Source: a virus
Lineage: Duplodnaviria; Caudoviricetes
Strand: one strand, 5' to 3'
IMG/VR virus record: IMGVR_UViG_3300027804_000001
Coordinates: 1 to 64,000 of that record
DNA: 64,000 nucleotides
Each line of letters starts with the position of its first letter. Positions within the stretch are counted from its first letter, which is position 1. Positions 52,842 to 64,000 of the stretch are shown piece by piece. The notes below the pieces were generated by a model, which ran no database searches, had not been told where the DNA came from, and saw only the letters and a list, made by a program, of their open reading frames with translations. The position numbers and the translations under genes were made by a program.

Positions 52842-53505
52842 AAAGTTTAACTACAAGCGAACCACACGCTTTTTTTATTGCATTACTTAAGGATGTTTGG
52901 TTGAATTTACCACCCTCGTCTACGATTAATGTGGACATTGAGATTTCTGAAGACCCTTCCTCAACAACAACTTCTTTTACTTTTTTACCGTTTTTATAAA
53001 GAATACCTTTCATTCTAACAACAACTTTTTCCTCATTTTTATGAAAAACTGATACGTTTTTCTTTGTTGTCAGAATATCCAAATAAACAATTTCCACCTT
53101 AATTTTATTTTCAGCAGATGGACTTAAATCTTTACCATTTTCTTGTAGATATTCTTCTAATATGTTTTTAACCCCAAATGATAATTGTCTATTACCTGCA
53201 AGTTTTCCAATTTTAACATTGTTCTCCACACCCTCTACCCATACATGATCTTCAGATTCATACCATATATTTTCTGGCGAATTTTTAAATGTGCCATCAA
53301 TCATATGTGTAATCTTATTTGTCCAAGTGTTAACAATTTCATCCTGACCTGTGGCCATTAAAATTATTGTTGATACTTGAAAGGCAAGTGCTAAGAATAC
53401 CCAAGCAAGTGCAAATACTAAGAAAAATTGGAAGAATCTATCCCTAATCGATAGTGCGATAATTTTTACCCTCTCCATTGTTTTTAAGTTTTTTAGTTGT
53501 ATCAC
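52834..53505 (-). CDS. Membrane-anchored protein with CsgG/LptE-like alpha-beta domain
   Basis: N-terminal TM; FGVKNILEEYL similar to LGVANIVLEYL of 44860-45588. Confidence 0.5.
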   Translation of the reverse strand: MIQLKNLKTMERVKIIALSIRDRFFQFFLVFALAWVFLALAFQVSTIILMATGQDEIVNTWTNKITHMIDGTFKNSPENIWYESEDHVWVEGVENNVKIGKLAGNRQLSFGVKNILEEYLQENGKDLSPSAENKIKVEIVYLDILTTKKNVSVFHKNEEKVVVRMKGILYKNGKKVKEVVVEEGSSEISMSTLIVDEGGKFNQTSLSNAIKKACGSLVVKLFE

Positions 53506-53607
53506 TAAAAACTTAAAACCTTACTCGGGTAAATTTTAAATTTCTAGGATACTTTTATTTATTTTGTTCATTTTATAAATATTTGAATAGTTGTTTAACG
53601 ATGTGAT

Positions 53608-53979
53608 TTAGTAGAGAATTTGCTTATTTTTTTCAAATATTTTGTATCCAAAGTCAATTCTTGTTTTAACTTGAGGTATTGAGAATTTTACAATTTCTTC
53701 TATCTCAATTATTAATTCGTTGTTTTCTCCTTTTAATTTTGAATTATCGTCGAAATATATATAACGATTTTTATCAAAATCTTTTCTCATTTTTTCATAT
53801 AAAACTTCATAATTTATTAATTCACAAACCATTTTTTCCATATGTAATAAATGAGGTGAAAGTTTTTTTAAAAGAAACGAGTTGTCAACTTTTTGTAGGT
53901 AGGCAAGTAAAACATATTGTTTTTGTTCAAAGTCAATCGGTGATTCCATATACCATGTAAGTGCTAGTTGATTCAACAT
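53608..53979 (-). CDS. Hypothetical protein
   Basis: 123-aa ORF, TATTTATA at 53993-54000. Confidence 0.7.
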   Translation of the reverse strand: MLNQLALTWYMESPIDFEQKQYVLLAYLQKVDNSFLLKKLSPHLLHMEKMVCELINYEVLYEKMRKDFDKNRYIYFDDNSKLKGENNELIIEIEEIVKFSIPQVKTRIDFGYKIFEKNKQILY

Positions 53980-54012
53980 TAAAATACTTTTTTATAAATA
54001 TTTTTAAATTTT

Positions 54013-54044
54013 CTTGTATTTTCATATACTTATTGTTATCTTTG
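54013..54044 (+). promoter_or_regulatory. Promoter region of tRNA block 1: host-type CTTG-N20-TATCTTTG plus CATATACTTAT motif
   Basis: TATCTTTG at 54037-54044; CATATACTTAT at 54023-54033, identical to 55680-55690. Confidence 0.7.
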
Positions 54045-54069
54045 TTAGAGATTTAAATAAAAAAGTTCG

Positions 54070-54174
54070 ATGAAACAAGTAAAACATATTATGCACTCGT
54101 TTACAATCTGTTCAAAATGGGCGGATGAGCGTGTTATGCTTTTGTCTCGAACTGAAGATATTAATAAGGGCTAA
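54070..54174 (+). CDS. Leader peptide 1 (34 aa: MKQVKHIMHSFTICSKWADERVMLLSRTEDINKG)
   Basis: ATG 54070 to TAA 54174; sits between promoter and terminator upstream of tRNA block 1. Confidence 0.8.
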   Translation: MKQVKHIMHSFTICSKWADERVMLLSRTEDINKG

Positions 54175-54233
54175 ATAAAGATTGGCTTTAAATATTCAGA
54201 ACCTCGGGACAAAATCTCGGGGTTTTTTGTTTT
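54140..54233 (+). promoter_or_regulatory. Attenuator 1: antiterminator (54140-54162 with 54191-54214) competing with terminator (54200-54224 plus U tract)
   Basis: TTTTGTCTCGA pairs with TCGGGACAAAA and CTGAA..TATT with AATATTCAG; terminator AACCTCGGGA-CAAAA-TCTCGGGGTT-TTTTGTTTTT. Confidence 0.8.
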
Positions 54234-54234
54234 T

Positions 54235-54307
54235 GGGCCGGATGTCAATGGCAGACCACCTGATTTGCAATCAGAGTGAATGGGTTCGATTCCCAACGCG
54301 TCCACCA
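54235..54307 (+). tRNA. tRNA-Ala(TGC), acceptor stem with two mismatches
   Basis: Loop TTTGCAA, G3-U70, TTCGATT, encoded CCA. Confidence 0.75.
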
Positions 54308-54368
54308 ACCCCCGAGTTTAGGAGCTGGTATCTCCGTTTCTCGATATAACTGAAAAACTACCACACAT

Positions 54369-54441
54369 TCTTAGGTAGCTCAATGGTGAGAGCATCCGTC
54401 TGATACGCGGAAGGTTGATGGTTCGAGTCCATCTCTAAGAA
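54369..54441 (+). tRNA. tRNA-Ile(GAT)
   Basis: TCCGT-CTGATAC-GCGGA; full cloverleaf. Confidence 0.95.
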
Positions 54442-54446
54442 CAATA

Positions 54447-54519
54447 GGAGATGAAGCTAACTTAGTAGAAGCGAAGGACTGAAAATCCTTAGGAGTTGGA
54501 GCGTAACCAACTATCTCCA
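54447..54519 (+). tRNA. tRNA-Phe(GAA) with non-canonical T-loop
   Basis: AAGGA-CTGAAAA-TCCTT; T arm GTTGG-AGCGTAA-CCAAC. Confidence 0.85.
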
Positions 54520-54524
54520 CAATT

Positions 54525-54598
54525 GACCTCTTAGCTCAGTTGGTTAGAGCACCTCACTTTTAATGAGGGAGTCCGCAGTTCGAGTCTGCGAGGGGTCA
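54525..54598 (+). tRNA. tRNA-Lys(TTT)
   Basis: CCTCA-CTTTTAA-TGAGG; full cloverleaf. Confidence 0.97.
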
Positions 54599-54604
54599 CA
54601 ATAC

Positions 54605-54675
54605 ATGGGTGTGGTGCAATGGTAGCATTCCGGTCTCCAAAACCGTCGATGGGAGTTCGAATCTCTCCACCCGTG
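54605..54675 (+). tRNA. tRNA-Trp(CCA)
   Basis: CCGGT-CTCCAAA-ACCGT; full cloverleaf. Confidence 0.95.
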
Positions 54676-54693
54676 CAAAAATTAAATAAATGT

Positions 54694-54764
54694 GGTCTCA
54701 TAGTTTAATGGAAAAACGTCTCGCTACGGACGAGATGATTGGGGTTCGAATCCCTGTGAGACCT
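54694..54764 (+). tRNA. tRNA-Arg(ACG)
   Basis: TCTCG-CTACGGA-CGAGA. Confidence 0.95.
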
Positions 54765-54796
54765 CTGTTCATTGTTCGAGAACAAAGAACAAATAA

Positions 54797-54867
54797 GTCA
54801 GGTTGGCCGAGTGGTTAGGCTGAGGTCTGCAAAACCTCCTACATTGGTTCGAATCCAATACTTGACT
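54797..54867 (+). tRNA. tRNA-Cys(GCA)
   Basis: GAGGT-CTGCAAA-ACCTC; U73. Confidence 0.96.
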
Positions 54868-54869
54868 CT

Positions 54870-54945
54870 GTGATAGATGTTCGTATGGTAGAACCCAAGA
54901 TTGTGGCTCTTGGATTAGCGGGTTCGAATCCCGTCTATCACCCCA
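54870..54945 (+). tRNA. tRNA-His(GTG), C73 but no encoded G-1
   Basis: CAAGA-TTGTGGC-TCTTG; encoded CCA; base -1 is T. Confidence 0.92.
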
Positions 54946-54946
54946 T

Positions 54947-55018
54947 TGTGGGGAGGTTAGGTAACCCGTTTGGTCTCATAAGCCAGATATTCAGGTTCGA
55001 TTCCTGGCCCCGCAACCA
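54947..55018 (+). tRNA. tRNA-Met(CAT), atypical (4-nt D-loop, U1-A72 paired, probably elongator)
   Basis: TTGGT-CTCATAA-GCCAG; D arm GGTT-AGGT-AACC; encoded CCA. Confidence 0.7.
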
Positions 55019-55036
55019 AAAAAAGATTAAAAATAT

Positions 55037-55067
55037 TTTGTGATTTCACAATTTATTCTTATCTTTG
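55037..55067 (+). promoter_or_regulatory. Internal Bacteroidota-type promoter upstream of tRNA-fMet
   Basis: TTTG (55037-55040) N19 TATCTTTG (55060-55067). Confidence 0.75.
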
Positions 55068-55077
55068 TAAAACAAAT

Positions 55078-55149
55078 CGCGAGATAGAGCAGCGGTAGCT
55101 CGGAAGGCTCATAACCTTTAGGTCGGGGGTTCGATTCCCTCTCTCGCAA
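55078..55149 (+). tRNA. Initiator tRNA-fMet(CAT)
   Basis: C1:A72 mismatch; GAAGG-CTCATAA-CCTTT. Confidence 0.9.
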
Positions 55150-55233
55150 CACTTGAGACTAACTCAACGAGGCTTTTGTCAACCAGAGCATGACTTGGAT
55201 GGTGCAGATTGAAGGTGGGTTAGAATCATTTTT

Positions 55234-55307
55234 GGTTTCTTGGTGTAGTGGCCTAACATGCCTCCCTGTCACGGAGGAGACCACGGGTTCGAATCCCGTA
55301 GGAACCG
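55234..55307 (+). tRNA. tRNA-Asp(GTC)
   Basis: CCTCC-CTGTCAC-GGAGG; G73. Confidence 0.97.
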
Positions 55308-55310
55308 CAA

Positions 55311-55472
55311 GTTGTTTCATACACTTAACACGCTTAGTAACAAAGCAAGGTACATAGAGTTACATAGAAGCATGGAGTGATTACCCGACGCTACATTCGG
55401 ACTACAAATGTGATTAGGTTCAGTCGTTGTAGAGAAAGAGATGTTAAGAGTAAACTTGCAAGTTGAAACAAC
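55311..55472 (+). ncRNA. Candidate 162-nt structured RNA between tRNA-Asp and tRNA-Ser
   Basis: Perfect terminal stem GTTGTTTCA/TGAAACAAC and inner CTTAACA/TGTTAAG; no ORF. Confidence 0.5.
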
Positions 55473-55476
55473 GATT

Positions 55477-55564
55477 GGAGAGATGGCAGAGTTGGCCGAT
55501 TGCGTCAGTCTTGAAAACTGAAGAACGGGAAACTGTTCCGTGGGTTCGAATCCTACTCTCTCCG
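55477..55564 (+). tRNA. tRNA-Ser(TGA)
   Basis: TCAGT-CTTGAAA-ACTGA; long variable arm; G73. Confidence 0.97.
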
Positions 55565-55569
55565 CACTT

Positions 55570-55641
55570 GCTCGGTTCGACTAGTGGTCAGGTCGCGTCC
55601 CTTTCACGGACGTAGCACGGGTTCGAATCCCGTACCGAGTA
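55570..55641 (+). tRNA. tRNA-Glu(TTC)
   Basis: CGTCC-CTTTCAC-GGACG. Confidence 0.97.
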
Positions 55642-55699
55642 CAAAAATTTTTTTATTATTTAAACTTTTTATATATTCACATATACTTATAAAACAGAG

Positions 55700-55804
55700 A
55701 TGAAGAATTTGAATAACATATCAACACTTAGTACGAGACCAGTTAATGGTAATGGGTATGGTGTGCAACCGTTATGTTACTCAAGTTCGGATTTCAAAAT
55801 GTAA
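55700..55804 (+). CDS. Leader peptide 2 (34 aa: MKNLNNISTLSTRPVNGNGYGVQPLCYSSSDFKM)
   Basis: ATG 55700 to TAA 55804; CATATACTTAT 9 nt upstream; terminator 23 nt downstream. Confidence 0.8.
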   Translation: MKNLNNISTLSTRPVNGNGYGVQPLCYSSSDFKM

Positions 55805-55866
55805 GATTCAATCTACCTAAGATATCGAAACCCGAACTCAACAAAAAAGTTCGGGTTTTTTGTTTT
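55784..55866 (+). promoter_or_regulatory. Attenuator 2: antiterminator (55784-55795 with 55827-55838) competing with terminator (55828-55858 plus U tract)
   Basis: AGTTCGGATTTC pairs 11/12 with GAAACCCGAACT; terminator AAACCCGAACT-N9-AGTTCGGGTTT-TTTGTTTT. Confidence 0.82.
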
Positions 55867-55895
55867 AGTAATTTTTTATTCTTATATTTTATTAG

Positions 55896-55907
55896 GTTCT
55901 TTGACAT
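55896..55907 (+). promoter_or_regulatory. boxA-like antitermination motif GTTCTTTGACAT; related copies at 59150 and 61548
   Basis: Resembles rrn boxA (TGCTCTTTAACA); copies precede tRNA block 2, the GOLLD-like RNA and tmRNA. Confidence 0.55.
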
Positions 55908-55920
55908 TGTGGGAAAATTT

Positions 55921-56005
55921 GCCGAGGTGATGGAATGGTAGACATGACAGACTTAAAATCTGTTGGGACGAAAGTCCCGTGCGGGTTCGACTCCCGCTCT
56001 CGGTA
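55921..56005 (+). tRNA. tRNA-Leu(TAA)
   Basis: ACAGA-CTTAAAA-TCTGT; long variable arm. Confidence 0.97.
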
Positions 56006-56044
56006 CAAACACTATCGTTCTTTGGAAATAAAGGAGAAAATAAT

Positions 56045-56290
56045 ATGGATATATTATCATTTATTTTAGGAATGTCCGTTGTGGTGGTTATCGCGGTTGC
56101 GGTAGTTGCTGTAATGGCCTTTGTTAAGGTGAGAAAACATAACAAAGAAATTGATGAAATTCATCAAATAATCGGAAGAGAAATTGATGTACAAAACAGA
56201 GAGCGTGAAACAATTGTTCAAGACATATATCGAACACTAGATTCACGACTTGATAAACTTGAAAGTAAATTAAACAGCCGTAAGGCATAA
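56045..56290 (+). CDS. Single-TM coiled-coil membrane protein embedded in the tRNA array
   Basis: Start moved to ATG 56045 (MDILSFILGM...); AAGGAG at 56031-56036. Confidence 0.8.
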   Translation: MDILSFILGMSVVVVIAVAVVAVMAFVKVRKHNKEIDEIHQIIGREIDVQNRERETIVQDIYRTLDSRLDKLESKLNSRKA

Positions 56291-56329
56291 CAATTAAATA
56301 AAAAACTTTCAAAGACGATAGTGTTAATT

Positions 56330-56404
56330 GGTCTGATAGTTAAACGGATATAACAACTCTCTTCTAAAGAGTAATTCGTGGTTCGATTCCACGTCGGACT
56401 ACCA
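56330..56404 (+). tRNA. tRNA-Arg(TCT)
   Basis: ACTCT-CTTCTAA-AGAGT; encoded CCA. Confidence 0.95.
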
Positions 56405-56406
56405 TT

Positions 56407-56480
56407 CGGGATTTAGTACAGTCCGGTAGTATGCTTGGTTTGGGACCAAGAGGTCGTAGGTTCGAATCCTGCAATCCCGA
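56407..56480 (+). tRNA. tRNA-Pro(TGG)
   Basis: CTTGG-TTTGGGA-CCAAG. Confidence 0.97.
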
Positions 56481-56485
56481 CACTT

Positions 56486-56557
56486 GTCTTCTTAGCTCAG
56501 CGGTAGAGCATCTCGCTGTTAACGAGAGGGTCCAAGGTTCGAAACCTTGAGAGGACG
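56486..56557 (+). tRNA. tRNA-Asn(GTT)
   Basis: TCTCG-CTGTTAA-CGAGA; G73. Confidence 0.97.
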
Positions 56558-56563
56558 CAAATT

Positions 56564-56647
56564 GGCCGAGTGGTGGAATGGTAGACACGTTGGTCTTAGG
56601 AACCAATGTTGAAAAACGTGAGAGTTCGAATCTCTCCTTGGTCACCA
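56564..56647 (+). tRNA. tRNA-Leu(TAG)
   Basis: TTGGT-CTTAGGA-ACCAA; encoded CCA. Confidence 0.97.
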
Positions 56648-56653
56648 ATAAAA

Positions 56654-56734
56654 TGGGGTATCGCATAGTGGCAATTGCGGGGGACTGTAAATCCCCTCTC
56701 ATTGAGTTCGGCGGTTCGAGTCCGTCTACCCCAA
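56654..56734 (+). tRNA. tRNA-Tyr(GTA)
   Basis: GGGGA-CTGTAAA-TCCCC; long variable arm. Confidence 0.96.
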
Positions 56735-56740
56735 CAAATT

Positions 56741-56814
56741 GGACTCGTAGCTCAGTTGGTCAGAGCAGGGCACTCATAATGCCAAGGTCGGGGGATCGTG
56801 ACCCTCCGGGTCCA
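56741..56814 (+). tRNA. tRNA-Ile2(CAT, lysidine type) probable; non-canonical T-loop
   Basis: AGAGCAGGGCA-CTCATAA-TGCC resembles Ile2 scaffolds; T-loop ATCGTGA; the only ATA codon of the two leaders is in this block's leader. Confidence 0.75.
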
Positions 56815-56818
56815 CAAT

Positions 56819-56893
56819 AGAAGATTAGCTCAGAGGAAGAGCATTTGGTTTACATCCAAAGGGTCGGGATTTCAAAATTCTCATCTTCTACCA
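56819..56893 (+). tRNA. tRNA-Val(TAC), weak T arm
   Basis: TTTGG-TTTACAT-CCAAA; T-loop TTCAAAA; encoded CCA. Confidence 0.88.
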
Positions 56894-56919
56894 AACTCGG
56901 AAGTAAAAACGAGACAAAT

Positions 56920-56995
56920 GCGGAAGTAGCTCATTAGGTAGAGCGTCTGCTTGCCAAGCAGAAGGTGGCCAGTTCGAGCCTGGTCTTCCGCTCCA
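56920..56995 (+). tRNA. tRNA-Gly(GCC)
   Basis: TCTGC-TTGCCAA-GCAGA; U73, encoded CCA. Confidence 0.97.
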
Positions 56996-56998
56996 CAA

Positions 56999-57072
56999 GC
57001 TTCCTTAGCTCAGCAGGCCAGAGCACGTGATTTGTAATCTCGGGGTCGTCAGTTCGATTCTGACAGGAAGCT
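56999..57072 (+). tRNA. tRNA-Thr(TGT)
   Basis: CGTGA-TTTGTAA-TCTCG (U:U in stem). Confidence 0.93.
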
Positions 57073-57130
57073 CAAAAGGACTTTAATGGTTGAAGTACAA
57101 AACTGACGTAGGTTAGTCCCACCTACAAAT

Positions 57131-57202
57131 GCAGATGTCGTATAATGGCTATTACTCCATCCTTCCAAGTTGGAGACGAAGGTTCGATTCCTTTCATCTG
57201 CT
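57131..57202 (+). tRNA. tRNA-Gly(TCC)
   Basis: CCATC-CTTCCAA-GTTGG (U:U in stem); U73. Confidence 0.95.
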
Positions 57203-57265
57203 CAATCATCAAAGAGACCGCTAAATCGAGTTAGTGAAAATCTACATTCTCAATGATGATTATTC

Positions 57266-57336
57266 TGTCCTTTAGTATAACGGTAGTACAGGTGGTTTTG
57301 GTCCATCTAGTTGGGGTTCGAATCCCTGAGGGACAA
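57266..57336 (+). tRNA. tRNA-Gln(TTG)
   Basis: GGTGG-TTTTGGT-CCATC; U1-A72. Confidence 0.95.
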
Positions 57337-57337
57337 C

Positions 57338-57577
57338 ATGGAATTAATAGCATACATAGGTGGAATATTACTTACAATTTGTGGTATACCTGAAGTCATT
57401 AGAACAATTAAAGATAAACGATGTCACTTAGGGTGGCCATTTTTATTATTATGGTTTTTTGGTGAGGTGTTTATGTTAATATATTCGGTTGATTTAAAAA
57501 GTTATCCATTAATAATGAATTATCTTTTTAATACCATTATTGTTGGGGTTATGTTATATTATAAAATAAAAAAATAA
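57338..57577 (+). CDS. PQ-loop / SemiSWEET-like three-TM protein
   Basis: IGGILLTICGIPEVIRTIK...; three hydrophobic helices; start moved to ATG 57338. Confidence 0.75.
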   Translation: MELIAYIGGILLTICGIPEVIRTIKDKRCHLGWPFLLLWFFGEVFMLIYSVDLKSYPLIMNYLFNTIIVGVMLYYKIKK

Positions 57578-57590
57578 AATAAAATAAACT

Positions 57591-57890
57591 ATGTGGTTAT
57601 ATGTCTTAGTATTTTTCTTTCAAGTTTTATTCAATGTTTTTAAAACTATGGAGATAAAATACACTTATGAGAATAAAGTTAAACAACTTGTGTTTAATTC
57701 GGTATGGATAAATCTTGTATCATTAGGTTCAACTTATTTTGCACTTGATAGATTATTTGCCAAAGATTGGACGGTTATTATTGTTTATATAAGTGGTAGT
57801 GTTTTTGGTAAATGGTGGGCAATGACACACTTTGTAAATTATGAAAATAAATTTTACGAATTTTTAAATAAAAGAAAAACAAAAAAATAA
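57591..57890 (+). CDS. Small three-TM membrane protein
   Basis: Hydrophobic helices, YISGSVFG. Confidence 0.7.
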   Translation: MWLYVLVFFFQVLFNVFKTMEIKYTYENKVKQLVFNSVWINLVSLGSTYFALDRLFAKDWTVIIVYISGSVFGKWWAMTHFVNYENKFYEFLNKRKTKK

Positions 57891-57893
57891 AAT

Positions 57894-58127
57894 ATGTATT
57901 TAACATTTCACATTATCTGTATCATTTATTGTATGTATCAACTAATAAAAAAATACAATAAATTATCAAATCCCGGTATGATTGGTGTATCTCCTGGTTT
58001 AGAGACCATTATGGTCATTGTATTAGCTCCTGCACTTGCAATTGTTGATGTATCATTAACATGGATTCGTTGGTATAAAGAAGCCGAAGAAGCTAGAAGA
58101 AGAAATGACGAAAGAAAAATTTTTTAG
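57894..58127 (+). CDS. Small two-TM membrane protein
   Basis: 77-aa ORF; its stop overlaps the first base of tRNA-Ser(GCT). Confidence 0.7.
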   Translation: MYLTFHIICIIYCMYQLIKKYNKLSNPGMIGVSPGLETIMVIVLAPALAIVDVSLTWIRWYKEAEEARRRNDERKIF

Positions 58128-58212
58128 GAGAGTTACCCAAGTTGGTGAAGGGGGCAGTTTGCTAAACTGTTAGGGTGTTAAAGCCGCGAGGGTTCGAGCC
58201 CCTCACTCTCCG
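58127..58212 (+). tRNA. tRNA-Ser(GCT)
   Basis: GCAGT-TTGCTAA-ACTGT; long variable arm; G73. Confidence 0.96.
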
Positions 58213-58217
58213 CAAAT

Positions 58218-58387
58218 TGTAGTGTGTTGAAAAACGATTGACACGCGTGTCAATCTGGCAGACAAGCCCTCCTGTCTCGGGGGTGTGGATAACGAAATAG
58301 ATTGGTAATATGGGGTAGACCACCATCCTGCAGGAATGTGTTATCAATTGAATCGCCTCGTGGATGGTTCGAATCCTCCCACTACAG
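58218..58387 (+). tRNA. 170-nt tRNA-Asp(GTC)-like RNA with D-loop hairpin insertion and 78-nt variable region
   Basis: Acceptor TGTAGTG/CACTACA + G73; anticodon arm CCCTC-CTGTCTC-GGGGG; T-loop TTCGAAT. Confidence 0.7.
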
Positions 58388-58415
58388 CTAAAATAATTAT
58401 AGTAAATGAAATGAA

Positions 58416-58877
58416 ATGAAACAATTTAGAACTCTCTATGGGACAAATATTCCTAACTTGATTGAGTATGTTAGAGAATACATCTCAACAAGAGAGAACG
58501 TAGAAATTCTCATCGGATCTGACTCACAATGTTATGGAAATAAGAAAACCATTTATGGTGTTGTAATAGCATTATATACACCAGGGAAAGGTGCACATGT
58601 TTTATGTACTCGTGAGACAACTTCGATGGAATATAATACACCATCTAGATTGTTAAATGAGGTTTGGAAATCTATTGAAATTGCGGAATGGTTAAAAGAA
58701 AATGGATTACCTAAACCTACATGGATTGATATTGATTTAAATCCTGACCCAAAGTATAAATCTAATTCCGTATTAAGACAGGCAGTTGGTTTAGTCGAGG
58801 GTATGGGATATAAAGTTAGGTATAAACACTTAGGTGCGTTAACAACATATGCTGCTAATCATTTAGTACGTATTTAA
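58416..58877 (+). CDS. RNase H-like YkuK/DUF458 family protein
   Basis: ILIGSDSQ, GKGAHV, RLLNEVWKSIEIA, IDIDLN. Confidence 0.85.
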   Translation: MKQFRTLYGTNIPNLIEYVREYISTRENVEILIGSDSQCYGNKKTIYGVVIALYTPGKGAHVLCTRETTSMEYNTPSRLLNEVWKSIEIAEWLKENGLPKPTWIDIDLNPDPKYKSNSVLRQAVGLVEGMGYKVRYKHLGALTTYAANHLVRI

Positions 58878-58907
58878 AAATAATAATAAATTATTTATAT
58901 TTTTAAT

Positions 58908-59090
58908 ATGGGATACACTAACTCTGATTTAATGGAAGAGATTATGATTCTTTCTTTTGAAGAAGGAATTATTAATGATGTGAGAGAAGAGGTAATGAGG
59001 ATATTAAATAATAATCAAACTTTACCTTTATACGAAATATATGAAATGGCGTATAATAAAATCTCGAAAAAAAATTTTAAAAATAATTGA
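58908..59090 (+). CDS. Hypothetical protein
   Basis: 60-aa ORF with upstream TATTTATA. Confidence 0.55.
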   Translation: MGYTNSDLMEEIMILSFEEGIINDVREEVMRILNNNQTLPLYEIYEMAYNKISKKNFKNN

Positions 59091-59097
59091 CAAAAAT

Positions 59098-59128
59098 TTT
59101 GTTTTTAAATAAACTCTTCGTATATTTG
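59098..59128 (+). promoter_or_regulatory. Bacteroidota-type promoter for the giant ncRNA
   Basis: TTTG (59098-59101) N19 TATATTTG (59121-59128). Confidence 0.75.
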
Positions 59129-59167
59129 TAAAACAATCGGAAACGATAAGTTCTTTGACTAAAAATA

Positions 59168-59977
59168 TTGGCCGCCTATGGTCATTAAATAAACTGTGAA
59201 AGCAGTATAAAGTGAATCTGAATTAGTTATTCAGGTTTGCGGTTTCAGAAATGGAACTTGAGTAGGCAAGCGGGATATCATCGAACCTTAAGTACTGAGG
59301 GTGACACTTTAGGGAAAGTGGTTTGGTGACCAAGCGATACCGGTCGTTTGGTTGAGGTGGGAACACCAATAAGAATAACTCGTAGAATTATTGTAAAAAG
59401 TATGGTCTCCAACTATACAATTGCGTGATTCAATACAATGGGAATCTTAAAACCGAAAGGTATGGTGATGTACAGGTGGTGCTGTTATTATCCTTGATTT
59501 GAATCTACCAAGATTCTTATCTCGAAGGGGTCCAAAAGTATGGAGGTAGGGATATCTCAGAGGGTAGTTTAGTATCGTGTTGTTCAAAAGATGACATGTC
59601 TGGTGACGAGCCACTACCTTCCAAATCGGTAACTAAAATCATTTTGTTAATTTTGGTTTAACAAACTTAAATACAAAAGGAAAAGTGCTCGTCAGTCGTT
59701 AGAGACAGGTGACTACATAGTCGTGAGGGGTTCACGGCCACAAAGGGTCCCAAGCCCAATGTGAATTGTAAGAAAGTTCTCTAGTCCCGCAAGGATTAAT
59801 CGGGGTGGCAACCTCGAAGAGTAATGAGTAAGATGAGAGTATCTAATGACTTAAGGATTGGTTAATCTAATTGACCGTCACTGGTTGGTACAGTTCAAAA
59901 GACTGTGGATAAGAAAGGAAACAATAATCTTTCTAAAGTCAACTACTAAAACTTGTAATCTCAGAGTTTTGTTTTTT
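59168..59977 (+). ncRNA. GOLLD-like giant structured ncRNA (~800 nt; ends approximate)
   Basis: ORF-free, GC-richer tract with many short GNRA-type hairpins (CCGAAAGG, CCCGCAAGG), own promoter and boxA, next to a tRNA array; size and context match GOLLD. No covariance-model search run. Confidence 0.7.
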
Positions 59978-60039
59978 AGTTTTAATAAACTAAATGGTGG
60001 AAGAGACCTCACAAAAATATTAACCGTGCGGCCCCAAAT

Positions 60040-60069
60040 CAAGTCAGAATATTTCTGACTTTTTTTTTG
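60040..60069 (+). terminator. Intrinsic terminator downstream of the giant ncRNA
   Basis: AAGTCAGA-ATATT-TCTGACTT-TTTTTTT. Confidence 0.8.
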
Positions 60070-60100
60070 CATATTAAAAAATATTTTTTATATTATTAAA

Positions 60101-60856
60101 ATGAGAATTGTTTGTATATCTGATACACATAGTCTCCATAAAAATATGGAGAAATATGGACCATTACCCGAAGGTGATGTATTAATACATGCGGGTGATT
60201 GTACAAACAAAGGAGAAAAACGTGATGTAGAAGAATTTGTTCATTGGTTTATGAACATAAAAGGATTTGATTCTAAAATTTTTATTGCCGGTAATCACGA
60301 TTTTGCATTTGAAGAACATAGATATCCACATCATAAAGGTGAATACGATTGGTTTCATCATTTAATGACACCTGAAAATTTATCACAATCAGATGTTGTG
60401 TATCTTGAAGATAGTGAGTTCATAATTGAATCACCTGAATTTAATAGACCAATAAAATTTTATGGATCGCCTTGGCAACCGGAGTTTTATAATTGGGCAT
60501 TTAATTTACCAAGACTTGGTGAAGATTTAAAAAGATATTGGTCAATGATTCCTGATGATACTGATGTATTAATTACCCACGGACCACCTAATGAAGCGAG
60601 GGATTTTGTAAATAATTGGAGACAAGGTAGTATTAATGTTGGGTGTGAATTATTACGTCATCGTGTAGATGAAATAAAACCTTTGTTACATGTGTTTGGT
60701 CACATTCACGGAGGTTATGGTGGTGCTTATATTAAAGACACTCTTTTTGTTAATGCATCAATTTGTACAGAACAATACATACCATCAAATAAACCCATTG
60801 TAATTGAATTAAAAGAATTCGATGGAAATATAGAAGCAATTTATGTCGAAGAATAA
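60101..60856 (+). CDS. Calcineurin-like metallophosphoesterase (MPPED/239FB type)
   Basis: ISDTH, HAGD, IAGNHD, LITHGPP, VFGHIH. Confidence 0.92.
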   Translation: MRIVCISDTHSLHKNMEKYGPLPEGDVLIHAGDCTNKGEKRDVEEFVHWFMNIKGFDSKIFIAGNHDFAFEEHRYPHHKGEYDWFHHLMTPENLSQSDVVYLEDSEFIIESPEFNRPIKFYGSPWQPEFYNWAFNLPRLGEDLKRYWSMIPDDTDVLITHGPPNEARDFVNNWRQGSINVGCELLRHRVDEIKPLLHVFGHIHGGYGGAYIKDTLFVNASICTEQYIPSNKPIVIELKEFDGNIEAIYVEE

Positions 60857-61526
60857 TCAACCTGTAAGTGTTATAATACCAACACGTCAAATAGATGATG
60901 ACTATTTGAAACATGTGAGTAAGATGTTTTCACATCCTAAAACTGAAATAATTGTTTATGAAAATAATGGTGAAGAATCTTTACCACAAATTTATAATAA
61001 AGGTTTAGAAGAATCGACATACGATATTGTTGTTTTTATGCATGACGATTTAATTATTGAGACGACAAATATTACACCTAAAATTGTTAAATTATTTGAT
61101 AAAAATCTTGAGTATGGTATTTTAGGTTTAGCAGGAACAAATAATTTATTAAGTGGAATGTGGTGGCAAGATAGAACATCTATGTATGGTGTTGTTGGTC
61201 ATGAACATAATGGAAAAAGACATGTGAATTATTATTCAAAACAAATGTTCACTGAGACACCTAAAGAAGTGGTTGTTGTTGATGGATTATTTATGATGGT
61301 TCATAAAAAAAGAATCAAACATAAATTCAACGAACAGTTTGAAGGTTTTCATTTTTACGATTTACCAATATGTCTTGATAATCATTTGGATGGGGTTAAA
61401 ATTGGAGTTACAACTAGAATTAGAGTAACACACAAATCAATAGGAATGGTTAATAAAAAATGGGAGAAGAATAAACTTCTATTTGAGGCGTTATATGAAA
61501 AAAACTTTCCTTTGGTAATATCATAA
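60843..61526 (+). CDS. Glycosyltransferase family 2-like protein
   Basis: YNKGL...DIVVFMHDDL, VVVDGLF, FHFYDL. Confidence 0.8.
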   Translation: MSKNNQPVSVIIPTRQIDDDYLKHVSKMFSHPKTEIIVYENNGEESLPQIYNKGLEESTYDIVVFMHDDLIIETTNITPKIVKLFDKNLEYGILGLAGTNNLLSGMWWQDRTSMYGVVGHEHNGKRHVNYYSKQMFTETPKEVVVVDGLFMMVHKKRIKHKFNEQFEGFHFYDLPICLDNHLDGVKIGVTTRIRVTHKSIGMVNKKWEKNKLLFEALYEKNFPLVIS

Positions 61527-61561
61527 AATATTTATATCTTTACATTAGTTCTTTAAAATAT

Positions 61562-61955
61562 GGGGGTGTCTGGTATTGATTGGCGTTAATATGATAGGTG
61601 GGCACGTAGTCGGATGTCATCTACGACTTTAATCAACGGTGGTAAAATTCAAACGGCAACGTTTACAACAAAATGGAAGCTTGCGGATTAATTGCAACTT
61701 CTAACGTAGCAGTAGCCTAAGGCGAGACTACATTCGGGTCGGTTAGGACATTAACCTAGGAACAGAAGTCCAATATACGGGTCACAGGTCAGAGCTCGTT
61801 TAAAATAATTCTGAGACCAGGTTGTTTATAGGTTGGTTTCCCACATACATCAAACCTAATATTTCGGAACATTGAGAAACAATGTTGTAATAAACGTGTA
61901 GTCCATTTATGGTATTGCGAGCAAGACACGGGTTCGACTCCCGTCACCTCCACCA
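61562..61955 (+). ncRNA. ssrA: tmRNA; predicted tag (A)GNVYNKMEACGLIATSNVAVA at 61655-61720
   Basis: Acceptor GGGGGTG/CACCTCC-A-CCA with G3-U70; T arm ACGGG-TTCGACT-CCCGT; internal short reading frame ending in Ala. Confidence 0.93.
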
Positions 61956-61960
61956 AAAGT

Positions 61961-61986
61961 AAAACCCCTCTATTGAGGGGTTTTTT
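61961..61986. terminator. Bidirectional terminator after tmRNA
   Basis: AAAACCCCTC-TATT-GAGGGGTTTTTT. Confidence 0.85.
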
Positions 61987-62045
61987 ATATGTTTATAAAT
62001 ATAAATCGATGTTTCACGTGAAATTATATGTATTAAAATATAATA

Positions 62046-62534
62046 TTAATCCTTAGATTTATTAATATTTGGGTCAGACATATTCTGAATATATGCATCC
62101 ACTAATCTACTAACAGCCTCAGGTTTTTCGTCAGCTTTGAATTTTACTTTAATTTTAGCCATTCCTGACCTATCAGTATTTTTCCCTGAATCAACTTCAA
62201 TACCCTTAATATTATGTTTGTATCCCCTTTTTTTAAATAAACCTAATAATGATTTTTTGAGATCTGAAACGCTAGATTGATCCTCTCCAAATATTAGTCT
62301 GGCTTCAAACTCTATCTCTAATTCATCTAACCCAATAGAAGAGTGATCTGCTAGAATATAAAGAGGTACATCTAAATCCTTACCCCCAATTGTGAAGGTT
62401 TGTATTATAGGTGTACCGTCTTCATTAAAATAGTTTCTGATAGCATTAATATGCTGTCTTTCACTTATACCTTGAGAAACCATCGCAGCCTCTAAGAGAC
62501 CCCCAACCAATTCTTCTATATTTAATCTTGCCAT
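62046..62534 (-). CDS. DUF2589-like protein
   Basis: LDVPLYILADHSSIGLDELEIEFEA...AKIKVKFKADEKPEAVSRL. Confidence 0.7.
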   Translation of the reverse strand: MARLNIEELVGGLLEAAMVSQGISERQHINAIRNYFNEDGTPIIQTFTIGGKDLDVPLYILADHSSIGLDELEIEFEARLIFGEDQSSVSDLKKSLLGLFKKRGYKHNIKGIEVDSGKNTDRSGMAKIKVKFKADEKPEAVSRLVDAYIQNMSDPNINKSKD

Positions 62535-62584
62535 AAAACTAATTTATATTATAATATAACATAAATTATTGACAAAATCAATTA

Positions 62585-63184
62585 TTATTTACTTGGGTCT
62601 GCTGTAAGTGGAATTAAAGATGGTTCTAACATTTGAGTTAGATAATCTGATAATTTCAACATACCTTCAGTCGGTGGTAATTGTTCAGCATGTACTTTTA
62701 CTTCATATTTTGCTGAATTATCTGTACTTCTTGTGTTTTCCTTATGTGTTGCAACTTTACCAGCAACTGTCGCTGAGAATTTCATACCCCACCAACTTGC
62801 AGATGCTGAAGCCGAATAAGATGTTTCACTATCTGAACTTTCTTTTGATGTTTCAGACGTTTTAACTTCCATAGTAAAGTTGATGTCCGCAGAAGTTATT
62901 GCTAATGAAGGAAGCGGGACTAATGGTAACATAGGAACCTTATTATACAATTTCTGTATAGTTTGTTCACCTGTCGCACCGTCGGTAACTACTCTGTTCA
63001 TTTCAACATCCAAAGAACGAGCAACATTCTTTTTAGTTTTCTCATCTTGTTCAAAAGCCACTTCGGAGATGTATCTCCAAGTTACCTCATTTAATTTTGC
63101 TTGACCCTTAGCCATCCCGACTATAGGTGAAACAATTAGATCCTCAATTGGAAGACCCGCAAATTGATCTGCAATACCCGCCAT
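62585..63184 (-). CDS. DUF2589-like protein
   Basis: FAGLPIEDLIVSP...AKGQAKL, VPMLPLVPLPSLAI, RSTDNSAKYEVKVHAEQLPPTEG. Confidence 0.8.
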   Translation of the reverse strand: MAGIADQFAGLPIEDLIVSPIVGMAKGQAKLNEVTWRYISEVAFEQDEKTKKNVARSLDVEMNRVVTDGATGEQTIQKLYNKVPMLPLVPLPSLAITSADINFTMEVKTSETSKESSDSETSYSASASASWWGMKFSATVAGKVATHKENTRSTDNSAKYEVKVHAEQLPPTEGMLKLSDYLTQMLEPSLIPLTADPSK

Positions 63185-63244
63185 AATTTTTTATTTAATT
63201 TTTGGTTTATTAACTATAAATATCTCACATTTAATTAAAAGGAT

Positions 63245-63448
63245 TTAACCAAATTTAACCATTCCCTTGTACTGGTTTTTTATTTTTTTAATTTCATTCA
63301 TTGCCTCATTATATGATTTTTTAATGTCTTCATTAACCGTAAAATCGAGTATTGTTTTACAGTTGGGACAGGCAGATATGGGATGTTTTATAATAAACTC
63401 TAAGGTTAAACCCAATGGGGTTTTACACATGGGACAAGGTAACGACAT
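63245..63448 (-). CDS. Small zinc-finger protein (CxxC...CxxC)
   Basis: MSLPCPMCK...ACPNCK; start moved to ATG 63448. Confidence 0.75.
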   Translation of the reverse strand: MSLPCPMCKTPLGLTLEFIIKHPISACPNCKTILDFTVNEDIKKSYNEAMNEIKKIKNQYKGMVKFG

Positions 63449-63594
63449 ATTAAAATATAAATAAAAAGAGTAACAATGTAAACGAACAAAGAGGTCTTTA
63501 GGACCCCTTTGCCGAGATAAAATACCTCCCTTTCGTTTAATCATGTTATCACCTAACGGCGACCAAACCAATTAGGTTCTAATATAAATATCTC

Positions 63595-63996
63595 TTAAGT
63601 ATATAAACGTGCTAAAGTTTTTAACCAAGCCAAATTCATAAGAGCACTTCCCGCATCGGCAATACCCGATGAATCATTACCATTTAACGAATTTAATTCT
63701 TCTTGTGATACAACACCACCTTGATTTATCATTTGACTAAATCTCGGGTCATTTGCTAATTGTTCTCTAAATTGAGAATCGGTTTGAAGTTTCTCTTGAA
63801 AAGATTCAAAATTTGGTAAACCAAAAATATCCAATATTCCATTAGCAATTATAAATTGTTTTATTAAGTTCCTTCTGTCTTTTCTACCAGTTCTAACAAT
63901 ATACCACCAATTTTTTATCCAGTTACTTGGTTTCTGTCCATTTTTTACAATGTATTTTGCAAGTCTTTCTTCTCTAAAAAAGTTTTTTATACCCAT
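63595..63996 (-). CDS. Hypothetical protein
   Basis: 133-aa ORF at the right edge. Confidence 0.65.
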   Translation of the reverse strand: MGIKNFFREERLAKYIVKNGQKPSNWIKNWWYIVRTGRKDRRNLIKQFIIANGILDIFGLPNFESFQEKLQTDSQFREQLANDPRFSQMINQGGVVSQEELNSLNGNDSSGIADAGSALMNLAWLKTLARLYT

Positions 63997-64000
63997 TGCA

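Follow-up and report, generated by a model that had tools for sequence, protein, structure and literature searches.

The tRNA array and its two leaders

We analyzed the first 64,000 nucleotides (nt) of the IMG/VR virus record IMGVR_UViG_3300027804_000001 (Caudoviricetes), hereafter the window, in which an array of about 4 kb on the + strand carries 26 transfer RNA (tRNA) genes arranged in two blocks, as found with ARAGORN and Rfam. Each block is preceded by a leader that consists of a short open reading frame (ORF) and an intrinsic terminator, and it is these leaders, as candidate attenuators of tRNA gene transcription, that are the subject of this analysis. An initial annotation, made from the sequence alone, had listed the block contents and anticodons, and both programs bore this list out. 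Block 1 (54235..55642, + strand) contains Ala(UGC), Ile(GAU), Phe, Lys, Trp, Arg(ACG), Cys, His, Met(CAU), an initiator-like CAU tRNA, Asp, Ser(UGA) and Glu, and block 2 (55921..58213, + strand) contains Leu(UAA), Arg(UCU), Pro, Asn, Leu(UAG), Tyr, an Ile2-like CAU tRNA, Val, Gly(GCC), Thr, Gly(UCC), Gln and Ser(GCU). ARAGORN reported 25 tRNAs and a transfer-messenger RNA (tmRNA) at its default threshold. The tRNA-Ala(UGC) gene (54235-54304/54307) is weak, with 29.7 bits relative to an Rfam gathering score of 29 and an ARAGORN match at a relaxed threshold only, and is kept at the same place in relatives. All three CAU tRNAs are labeled Met by ARAGORN; the one at 56741 is presumably Ile2 and the one at 55078 presumably fMet, and these labels stay presumptive, as a BLAST comparison of the CAU tRNAs with annotated E. 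coli genomes returned nothing useful. The phage tRNA set decodes all sense codons but CGG, which allows every codon to be attributed to one of the two blocks.

Leader ORF 1 (54070..54174, + strand), which has an A-rich 5' flank, and leader ORF 2 (55700..55804, + strand) each comprise 34 sense codons and a stop codon, and have homologues in 15 distinct relatives and in 18 relatives, respectively. The distance from the end of the ORF to the terminator, whose hairpin is G+C-rich, is 22-23 nt in both leaders. Intrinsic terminator 1 (54198..54235, + strand) is formed by a 12-base-pair (bp) stem (54198-54226) and a T tract, and tRNA-Ala starts 9 nt past this stem; intrinsic terminator 2 (55827..55869, + strand) likewise has a 12-bp stem (55827-55859) followed by a T tract.

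Leader codons match the downstream tRNA block

The initial annotation stated that 18 of the 22 codons at positions 2-23 of leader 1 (54073..54138, + strand) are read by block-1 tRNAs, with 12 of 12 block-1 specificities represented, and that codons 2-28 of leader 2 contain 23 of 27 block-2 codons, with 13 of 13 specificities; our counts were identical. When leader 2 is taken only to codon 27, the sensing part holds 23 block-2 and 3 block-1 codons and again all 13 of the 13 block-2 specificities, including codons for both Gly, both Leu, and the AGA, ATA and AGT codons. The further claim that the match extends to synonymous choices stood, with one exception: leader 1 uses CGT/CGA, ATT/ATC and TCN, and leader 2 uses AGA, ATA and AGT, but leader 2 contains three TCN codons as well (codons 8, 28 and 30), two of which are in its 3' tail.

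We evaluated the significance of this match with the whole ORFs, which leaves no codon range to be picked after the fact. In the whole ORFs, 48 of 66 codons are read by the block behind them and coverage is 25/25 species. In the permutation test that had been proposed for this locus, random 12/13 partitions of the 25 species equaled the whole-ORF match with a frequency of 4.7e-5 and reached full coverage with a frequency of 5.6e-4; with the codon ranges of the initial annotation, none of 300,000 random partitions (0/300,000) equaled the match. When peptides were generated at random with the codon frequencies of the phage, full coverage had a P of 2.7e-4 for leader 1 and 6.5e-3 for leader 2. 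The sensing ranges of the initial annotation were recovered independently when we located the antiterminator strand with RNAduplex, a procedure that is blind to codons, and in the window the ratio of own-block to other-block codons was 41:7 in the sensing part versus 7:11 in the tail (P = 3.8e-4).

Terminators and antiterminators form mutually exclusive pairings

The 5' strand of antiterminator 1 (54139..54157, + strand) occupies codons 24-30 of leader ORF 1 and pairs with the 5' arm and loop of terminator 1 (RNA duplex of -16.6 kcal/mol, z -2.8), and the 5' strand of antiterminator 2 (55783..55796, + strand) occupies codons 28-33 of leader ORF 2 and pairs with the 5' arm of terminator 2 (-13.9 kcal/mol, z -2.5). 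Among 50-odd distinct leaders belonging to several sequence families, all but one had a strand complementary to the 5' arm of the terminator within their final 5-9 codons, and the antiterminator duplexes of 17 representatives were better than those of shuffled sequences (mean z -3). The stop codon was 19-33 nt before the terminator across the leaders tested, which places the terminator out of the reach of a terminating ribosome.

Both of the competing helices covary. In the leader-1 family (alignment A1, 15 sequences), 92% of the antiterminator cells were paired and 3 pairs had changed on both sides, while sliding the partner columns left at most 53% paired; in the terminator of the same 15 relatives, 100% of cells were paired and two pairs were compensatory. 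In another family (A3), unrelated to the first, the antiterminator was 98.6% paired, with one compensatory pair, and the terminator was 100% paired, also with compensatory changes. The GTTCGG core of the antiterminator is invariant in the leader-2 family, and this helix therefore carries no covariation information. In addition, the ORFs in the window fold into long hairpins in which the start-codon region is paired with the antiterminator strand (z -2.9 for leader 1 and -3.3 for leader 2; in the minimum-energy fold of leader 1 the strand pairs with 54064-54070), and this hairpin is a candidate for the classical 1:2, or anti-antiterminator, element, which ends transcription when a leader is not translated.

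Leaders of related loci follow the tRNA content of their arrays

We retrieved relatives through the RNaseH-like protein encoded downstream of the array (58416-58877; PF04308, E 4e-16), because an upstream 123-amino-acid protein gave only weak and short IMG/VR matches. This yielded 80 IMG/VR loci (L001-L080) with 52-94% identity, on contigs of up to 324 kb, in which the RNaseH-like gene adjoins the tRNA array; most of the 80 loci carry such arrays. The RNaseH-like protein may act in RNA processing. Among the cultured phages of INPHARED we found no close relative and only generic tRNA matches, and the public runs that contain the stretch are freshwater metagenomes. Leader units were sought as ATG-initiated ORFs of 24-62 codons that end at most 95 nt from a terminator preceding a tRNA, and they were found all through the family, before tRNA blocks, in at least five leader sequence families. 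No leader was found in relatives with few tRNAs (L003, L026, L030 and L043).

Close relatives carry homologues of both leaders, with in-frame indels, and their synonymous changes keep to the codon set of one tRNA (TGT/TGC, CGT/CGC, GAG/GAA, AAT/AAC, CCN and ACN). The arrays of distant relatives are rearranged and their leaders have no sequence relation to those of the window, yet each samples its downstream tRNA set, as in L053 (18/18 species in 28 codons) and L059 (20/20 in 31 codons). Relatives with a single block have leaders of 39-53 codons, with coverage of up to 24/24 species (L065 and L072), and in these leaders the codons of isoacceptors stand side by side (CGT AGA, AGT TCG); pairs such as TTG...CTA, GGG...GGC and ATA...ATT also occur. 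Combined over five leader families, each with a single representative, the P-value for coverage is 4e-14.

The match was specific to the reading frame and to the position within the ORF. Counted among codons readable by any phage tRNA, the own-block share was 0.90 in the ORF frame versus 0.53 and 0.45 in the other two frames, and coverage of the block's species was 0.96 in frame versus 0.58 and 0.50 out of frame. Family-wide, 740/823 codons upstream of the antiterminator strand were own-block codons versus 144/272 from the strand to the stop codon, and in the sensing part 188/195 own-block codon classes were present versus 30/142 other-block classes; as the pooled rows are related by descent, P-values over them are not probabilities. 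These results bear on the possibility that the ORFs arise by chance in a structured non-coding leader, or reflect base composition. Short ORFs are common in AT-rich DNA, but this explanation is contradicted by the partition and codon-usage tests and by the frame control, as well as by the in-frame indels, by the conservation of the ORF over relatives of 52-94% identity, and by the convergent leaders of rearranged arrays, and we give it almost no weight.

We also compared leader codons with the gain, loss or relocation of tRNAs between blocks, a check suggested in the initial annotation, and found that leaders follow tRNA moves, tRNA losses and the merging of the array into one block. The Asp and Glu tRNAs of L029 are in the other block; its leader-1 homologue has no D or E codons, the family stretch W-A-D-E-R reading W-T-A-I-R, and its other leader has gained E, D and E. 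Thr codons change leader together with the Thr tRNA (L018 and L034): where this tRNA has moved to block 1, in L018 and the L032-L047 clade, 3-4 Thr codons are found in leader 1 and 0-1 in leader 2, compared with 1 and 2 in the window. The Gln tRNA of L016 is outside the block and its leader lacks Q, and L025 has lost most of block 2 and has a leader that lacks Y, Q, T and AGY codons.

Promoter-like and boxA-like sites around the leaders

The initial annotation placed a promoter before each leader. Sites of this kind exist, but they approach the Bacteroidota-type consensus without matching it strictly: the strict pattern (TTTG-N18-21-TAnnTTTG) occurs in the region only at 55037-55067 and 59098-59128. 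Upstream of leader 1, the promoter-like site at 54013..54044 (+ strand) reads CTTG-N20-TATCTTTG, with one mismatch to TTTG/TAnnTTTG. Upstream of leader 2 is a conserved block (55660..55690, + strand; alignment A2). It includes a -7-like box at 55672-55679, TATATTCA, in place of which most relatives have TATATTTG or TATCTTTG. The two upstream regions have an 11-mer, CATATACTTAT, in common (54023-54033 and 55680-55690). The motif TATAYTTAT, which falls at these two places in the window, is found at distances between 0 and about 40 nt ahead of the leader ATG, both in the window and in the examined relatives of other leader families. We rejected it as a general promoter of this phage, as it is not enriched in the window (7 occurrences versus 5.9 expected); it may mark the transcription start of leader units, and its position abutting the ATG in some units (L065) suggests near-leaderless messenger RNAs.

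Two additional sites could drive tRNA transcription from within the array. The consensus Bacteroidota-type promoter within block 1 (55037..55067, + strand) is an exact pattern match directly before the initiator-like tRNA, and the same motif precedes the initiator-like tRNA of L003. The caution in the initial annotation that a host-type promoter here could drive the initiator-like, Asp, Ser and Glu tRNAs on its own was thus justified. After attenuator 2 (55859..55904, + strand) we found a promoter-like site, TTTG-N20-TATATTTT, whose counterpart in most relatives conforms to the consensus TAnnTTTG. It is followed by a boxA-like word, GTTCTTTGA, at 55896-55904. Exact copies of this word are at 55896, 59150 and 52030, and a one-mismatch copy is at 61548, so that it stands before tRNA block 2, before the GOLLD RNA and, with one mismatch, before the tmRNA. 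The boxA-like element after attenuator 2 is conserved in relatives, and window-wide the word with one mismatch is no commoner than expected by chance. Because of the extra promoters at 55037-55067 and after attenuator 2, the leaders probably add to tRNA transcription rather than wholly gating it, supplying an inducible component on top of basal transcription, much as tandem rrn promoters do.

The site after terminator 2, with its consensus form in relatives, and the conservation of peptide sequences within clades would also be expected if each leader were an independent mini-gene, with its own promoter, a 34-residue peptide acting in trans and its own terminator, and if the tRNA blocks were driven by later promoters. 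We consider this very improbable. The start of tRNA-Ala 9 nt from the stem of terminator 1 leaves no room for a promoter, the antiterminator covaries, and the peptides of different clades are unrelated, with the sampling of the downstream tRNA set as their only common property. All 20 amino acids occur about once each in 31 residues, which is not protein-like, and the leader peptides had no Pfam matches.

A model for attenuation of tRNA gene transcription

Each leader combines, at the sequence level, an ORF, codons cognate to the regulated tRNAs, an intrinsic terminator, and an antiterminator strand that a finishing ribosome can reach. We therefore consider it likely that the leaders are ribosome-mediated transcription attenuators of the trp/his type that act on tRNA genes and provide feedback on decoding capacity. 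This had been the reading of the initial annotation, and it held up on four counts: the ORFs are conserved, the codon match is specific to frame and position, the antiterminator is in the last codons and has undergone compensatory changes, and codon content follows the tRNAs.

We infer translation of the ORF, the polarity of the switch (stalling leading to read-through) and its physiological trigger from the arrangement of these elements, as follows. Translation of the leader ORF would proceed as RNA polymerase moves along the leader. On reaching the last codons, the ribosome would cover or unwind the antiterminator strand (codons ~24-30 in leader 1 and 28-33 in leader 2), and with this strand occupied the terminator would form and transcription would end immediately ahead of the first tRNA. 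Slow decoding at any of the codons further upstream would instead leave the strand free, so that the antiterminator would form and the polymerase would read into the tRNA block. As the sensing codons jointly offer at least one codon for each tRNA species of the block behind them, the predicted outcome is negative feedback, in which a tRNA set is boosted when host and phage tRNAs together are limiting for its codons and turned down when they are sufficient.

Several observations weigh against this model. Amino acid starvation would set off the switch too, and in that situation extra tRNA would be of no help. Many tRNAs would be expressed from the promoter at 55037-55067 and from the site after attenuator 2, bypassing the attenuators. 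The match is imperfect: Val codons track the Val tRNA poorly across relatives, the leader-1 family has mainly off-block codons at positions 2-5, and L035 has a full leader before only 4 tRNAs. In clade B of the leader-1 family, conservation of the 1:2 pairing is not evident. When we folded the leaders at equilibrium with ribosome footprints masked, the terminator always won, the state before the terminator was mixed, and stalled and unstalled states were not separated; the switch must be kinetic, and we base no conclusion on this folding. Lastly, the support for translation and for stall-responsive termination comes from sequence.

The same folding result, together with a polarity that was deduced from the arrangement and a boxA-like antitermination signal after attenuator 2, would fit an ORF that does not sense, or that senses with the opposite polarity: its translation might serve Rho protection or timing, and stalling would bring no gain in tRNA transcription. 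We judge this improbable, as nearly every leader has the competing strand in the last codons of its ORF and its stop codon 19-33 nt before the terminator, an arrangement in which a finishing ribosome favors termination, and as a non-sensing ORF needs neither one codon for each downstream tRNA nor the tracking of tRNA moves.

Two metatranscriptome contigs of low depth (55728-55917 and 55744-55891) span leader 2, terminator 2 and the boxA-like word, and could be either read-through RNA or carried-over DNA; the metatranscriptome contigs are mostly tRNA matches from other organisms, and RNA ends cannot be read from them.

Comparison with known regulatory systems

The attenuators of the amino acid operons of Enterobacteria (trpL, hisL, pheL, leuL and the multivalent thrL and ilvL) resemble the phage units in having a short translated ORF and an intrinsic terminator before the regulated genes, in the 5' strand of an antiterminator that is reached by the ribosome completing the ORF, and in reading the supply of charged tRNA through ribosome speed. 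They differ in what is regulated, which is biosynthetic enzymes rather than tRNA genes, and in the sensor, which is a run of one to three codon kinds (1-3) rather than about 1-3 codons for each of 12-24 tRNA species, resolved to the isoacceptor. Their signal is the supply of one amino acid, in contrast to decoding capacity in the proposed phage leaders, and the phage units, unlike those of Enterobacteria, are phage-borne and have a Bacteroidota-type promoter context. The pheM leader attenuates pheST, an aminoacyl-tRNA synthetase operon, and is thus, like the phage units, an example of leader-peptide attenuation of a gene of the translation apparatus; unlike them, it senses a single amino acid (Phe) and controls a cellular gene with a protein product. 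The phage units thus differ from known attenuators in their tRNA-gene target and in the use of one codon per isoacceptor for at least 12 species.

T-box riboswitches also choose between terminator and antiterminator according to tRNA status, act on translation-related genes and have a codon-like specificity. They do so by direct binding of one uncharged tRNA, through a specifier codon and the T-box motif and without translation, whereas the signal in the phage units is in an in-frame ORF. An Rfam scan of 53000-64000 with an E-value threshold returned no T-box match, and the phage units do not qualify as T-boxes. The boxA-like word that precedes tRNA block 2 and GOLLD recalls the boxA (Nus-factor) antitermination system of rrn operons, but that system makes the polymerase processive and is not a sensor, and the phage word is downstream of the attenuator.

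To our knowledge, the regulation of phage tRNA genes is essentially unknown, as is the reason for the near-complete tRNA sets of large phages. Full-text literature searches returned no description of leader-peptide attenuation of tRNA genes. An attenuator-like leader of E. coli tRNA-Phe genes, considered as a possible cellular precedent, was dropped, since the region upstream of MG1655 pheV has neither a leader ORF nor a terminator. When Naville and Gautheret 2010 (PMC2965389) was searched for four phrases referring to tRNA or rRNA operons, none was found.

Taken across the leader families, the data lead us to favor, with somewhat less assurance than the attenuation model itself, the broader view that such "pan-codon" attenuators have evolved repeatedly in phages, in unrelated sequence families, and that in each of them one short translated ORF with about one codon per isoacceptor gates or boosts exactly those tRNA genes. 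If this is true, leader-peptide attenuation would be seen here for the first time on tRNA genes, no earlier attenuator would have sensed at least 12 tRNA species at once, and the leaders would represent closed-loop viral control of decoding capacity, possibly with a built-in alarm for tRNA-cleaving defenses of the host.

Host anticodon nucleases deplete tRNAs during infection, and phage tRNAs counter them. The same hardware might serve chiefly in counter-defense, by detecting tRNA cleavage by anticodon nucleases (of the PrrC, RloC, VapC or PARIS AriB type) and switching on replacement tRNAs, a role on which the initial annotation had laid weight. One codon per isoacceptor is compatible with this, as the loss of any single species would be sensed, and so is the known use of phage tRNAs against such nucleases. 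However, nothing in the window or in the relatives ties the units to a defense system, the leaders sample all species evenly, with no preference for those that such nucleases usually cleave (Lys, Tyr, Asn and similar ones), and feedback on decoding capacity explains the same data, for example through decay of host tRNAs or growth in hosts with other codon usage. We therefore regard counter-defense as an unlikely main function, and host anticodon nucleases as a selective reason that is compatible with the data and not supported by them.

If the leaders work as proposed in the attenuation model, tRNA supply in this phage would be under direct translational feedback, and attenuation, a textbook mechanism, would extend from genes for amino acid biosynthesis and aminoacyl-tRNA synthetases to tRNA genes, with a multiplexed sensor of 12-24 inputs. 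The model makes concrete predictions on specificity, which synonymous swaps between isoacceptor families would put to the test. Leaders of this kind could be used in annotation, to locate the transcription units of tRNA genes and to settle the identity of ambiguous CAU tRNAs by means of the leader codons, and each leader would be a small natural part from which decoding stress can be read for individual codons.

Other features of the array and its surroundings

Block 2 is interspersed with four small membrane-protein-like ORFs (56045-56290, 57338-57577, 57591-57890 and 57894-58127), none of which had a Pfam match. After tRNA-Ser(GCU), at 58214-58390, is a 170-nt element that has large insertions and whose acceptor and T arm resemble those of a tRNA (fold z -1.2); there was no Rfam match for it.

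The long spacers of block 1 between fMet and Asp and between Asp and Ser (55151-55233 and 55309-55476) were represented by several variant contigs, at depths of ~45-220, in four freshwater or river metatranscriptomes, and one 326-nt metatranscriptome contig is an exact match to 55122-55447. The folds of these two spacers were no better than those of shuffled sequences (z about -1). The spacers may be stable non-coding RNAs inside the tRNA array.

Some of the relatives carry unusual tRNAs. ARAGORN reported a tRNA with a CUA anticodon ("Pyl") in L023, L024, L031, L032 (L032:12048), L042 and L047, which could be an amber suppressor and a hint of TAG read-through or recoding in part of the family. 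Wobble A outside the Arg-ACG family is unusual in bacteria, and we observed it here in Asn-ATT (L011, L012 and L014), Ser-ACT (L046, L048 and L052), Asp-ATC (L071, L072, L075 and L076) and Gly-ACC (L023 and L031).

Downstream of the tRNA array is a full-length GOLLD RNA (59560-59967; Rfam RF02032, 322 bits, E 2.5e-92), which is preceded by the consensus promoter at 59098-59128 and the boxA-like word at 59150-59158. The phage tmRNA (61562-61955; 88.8 bits in Rfam) has the tag ATSNVAVA* according to ARAGORN, and the tmRNAs of relatives carry longer tags.

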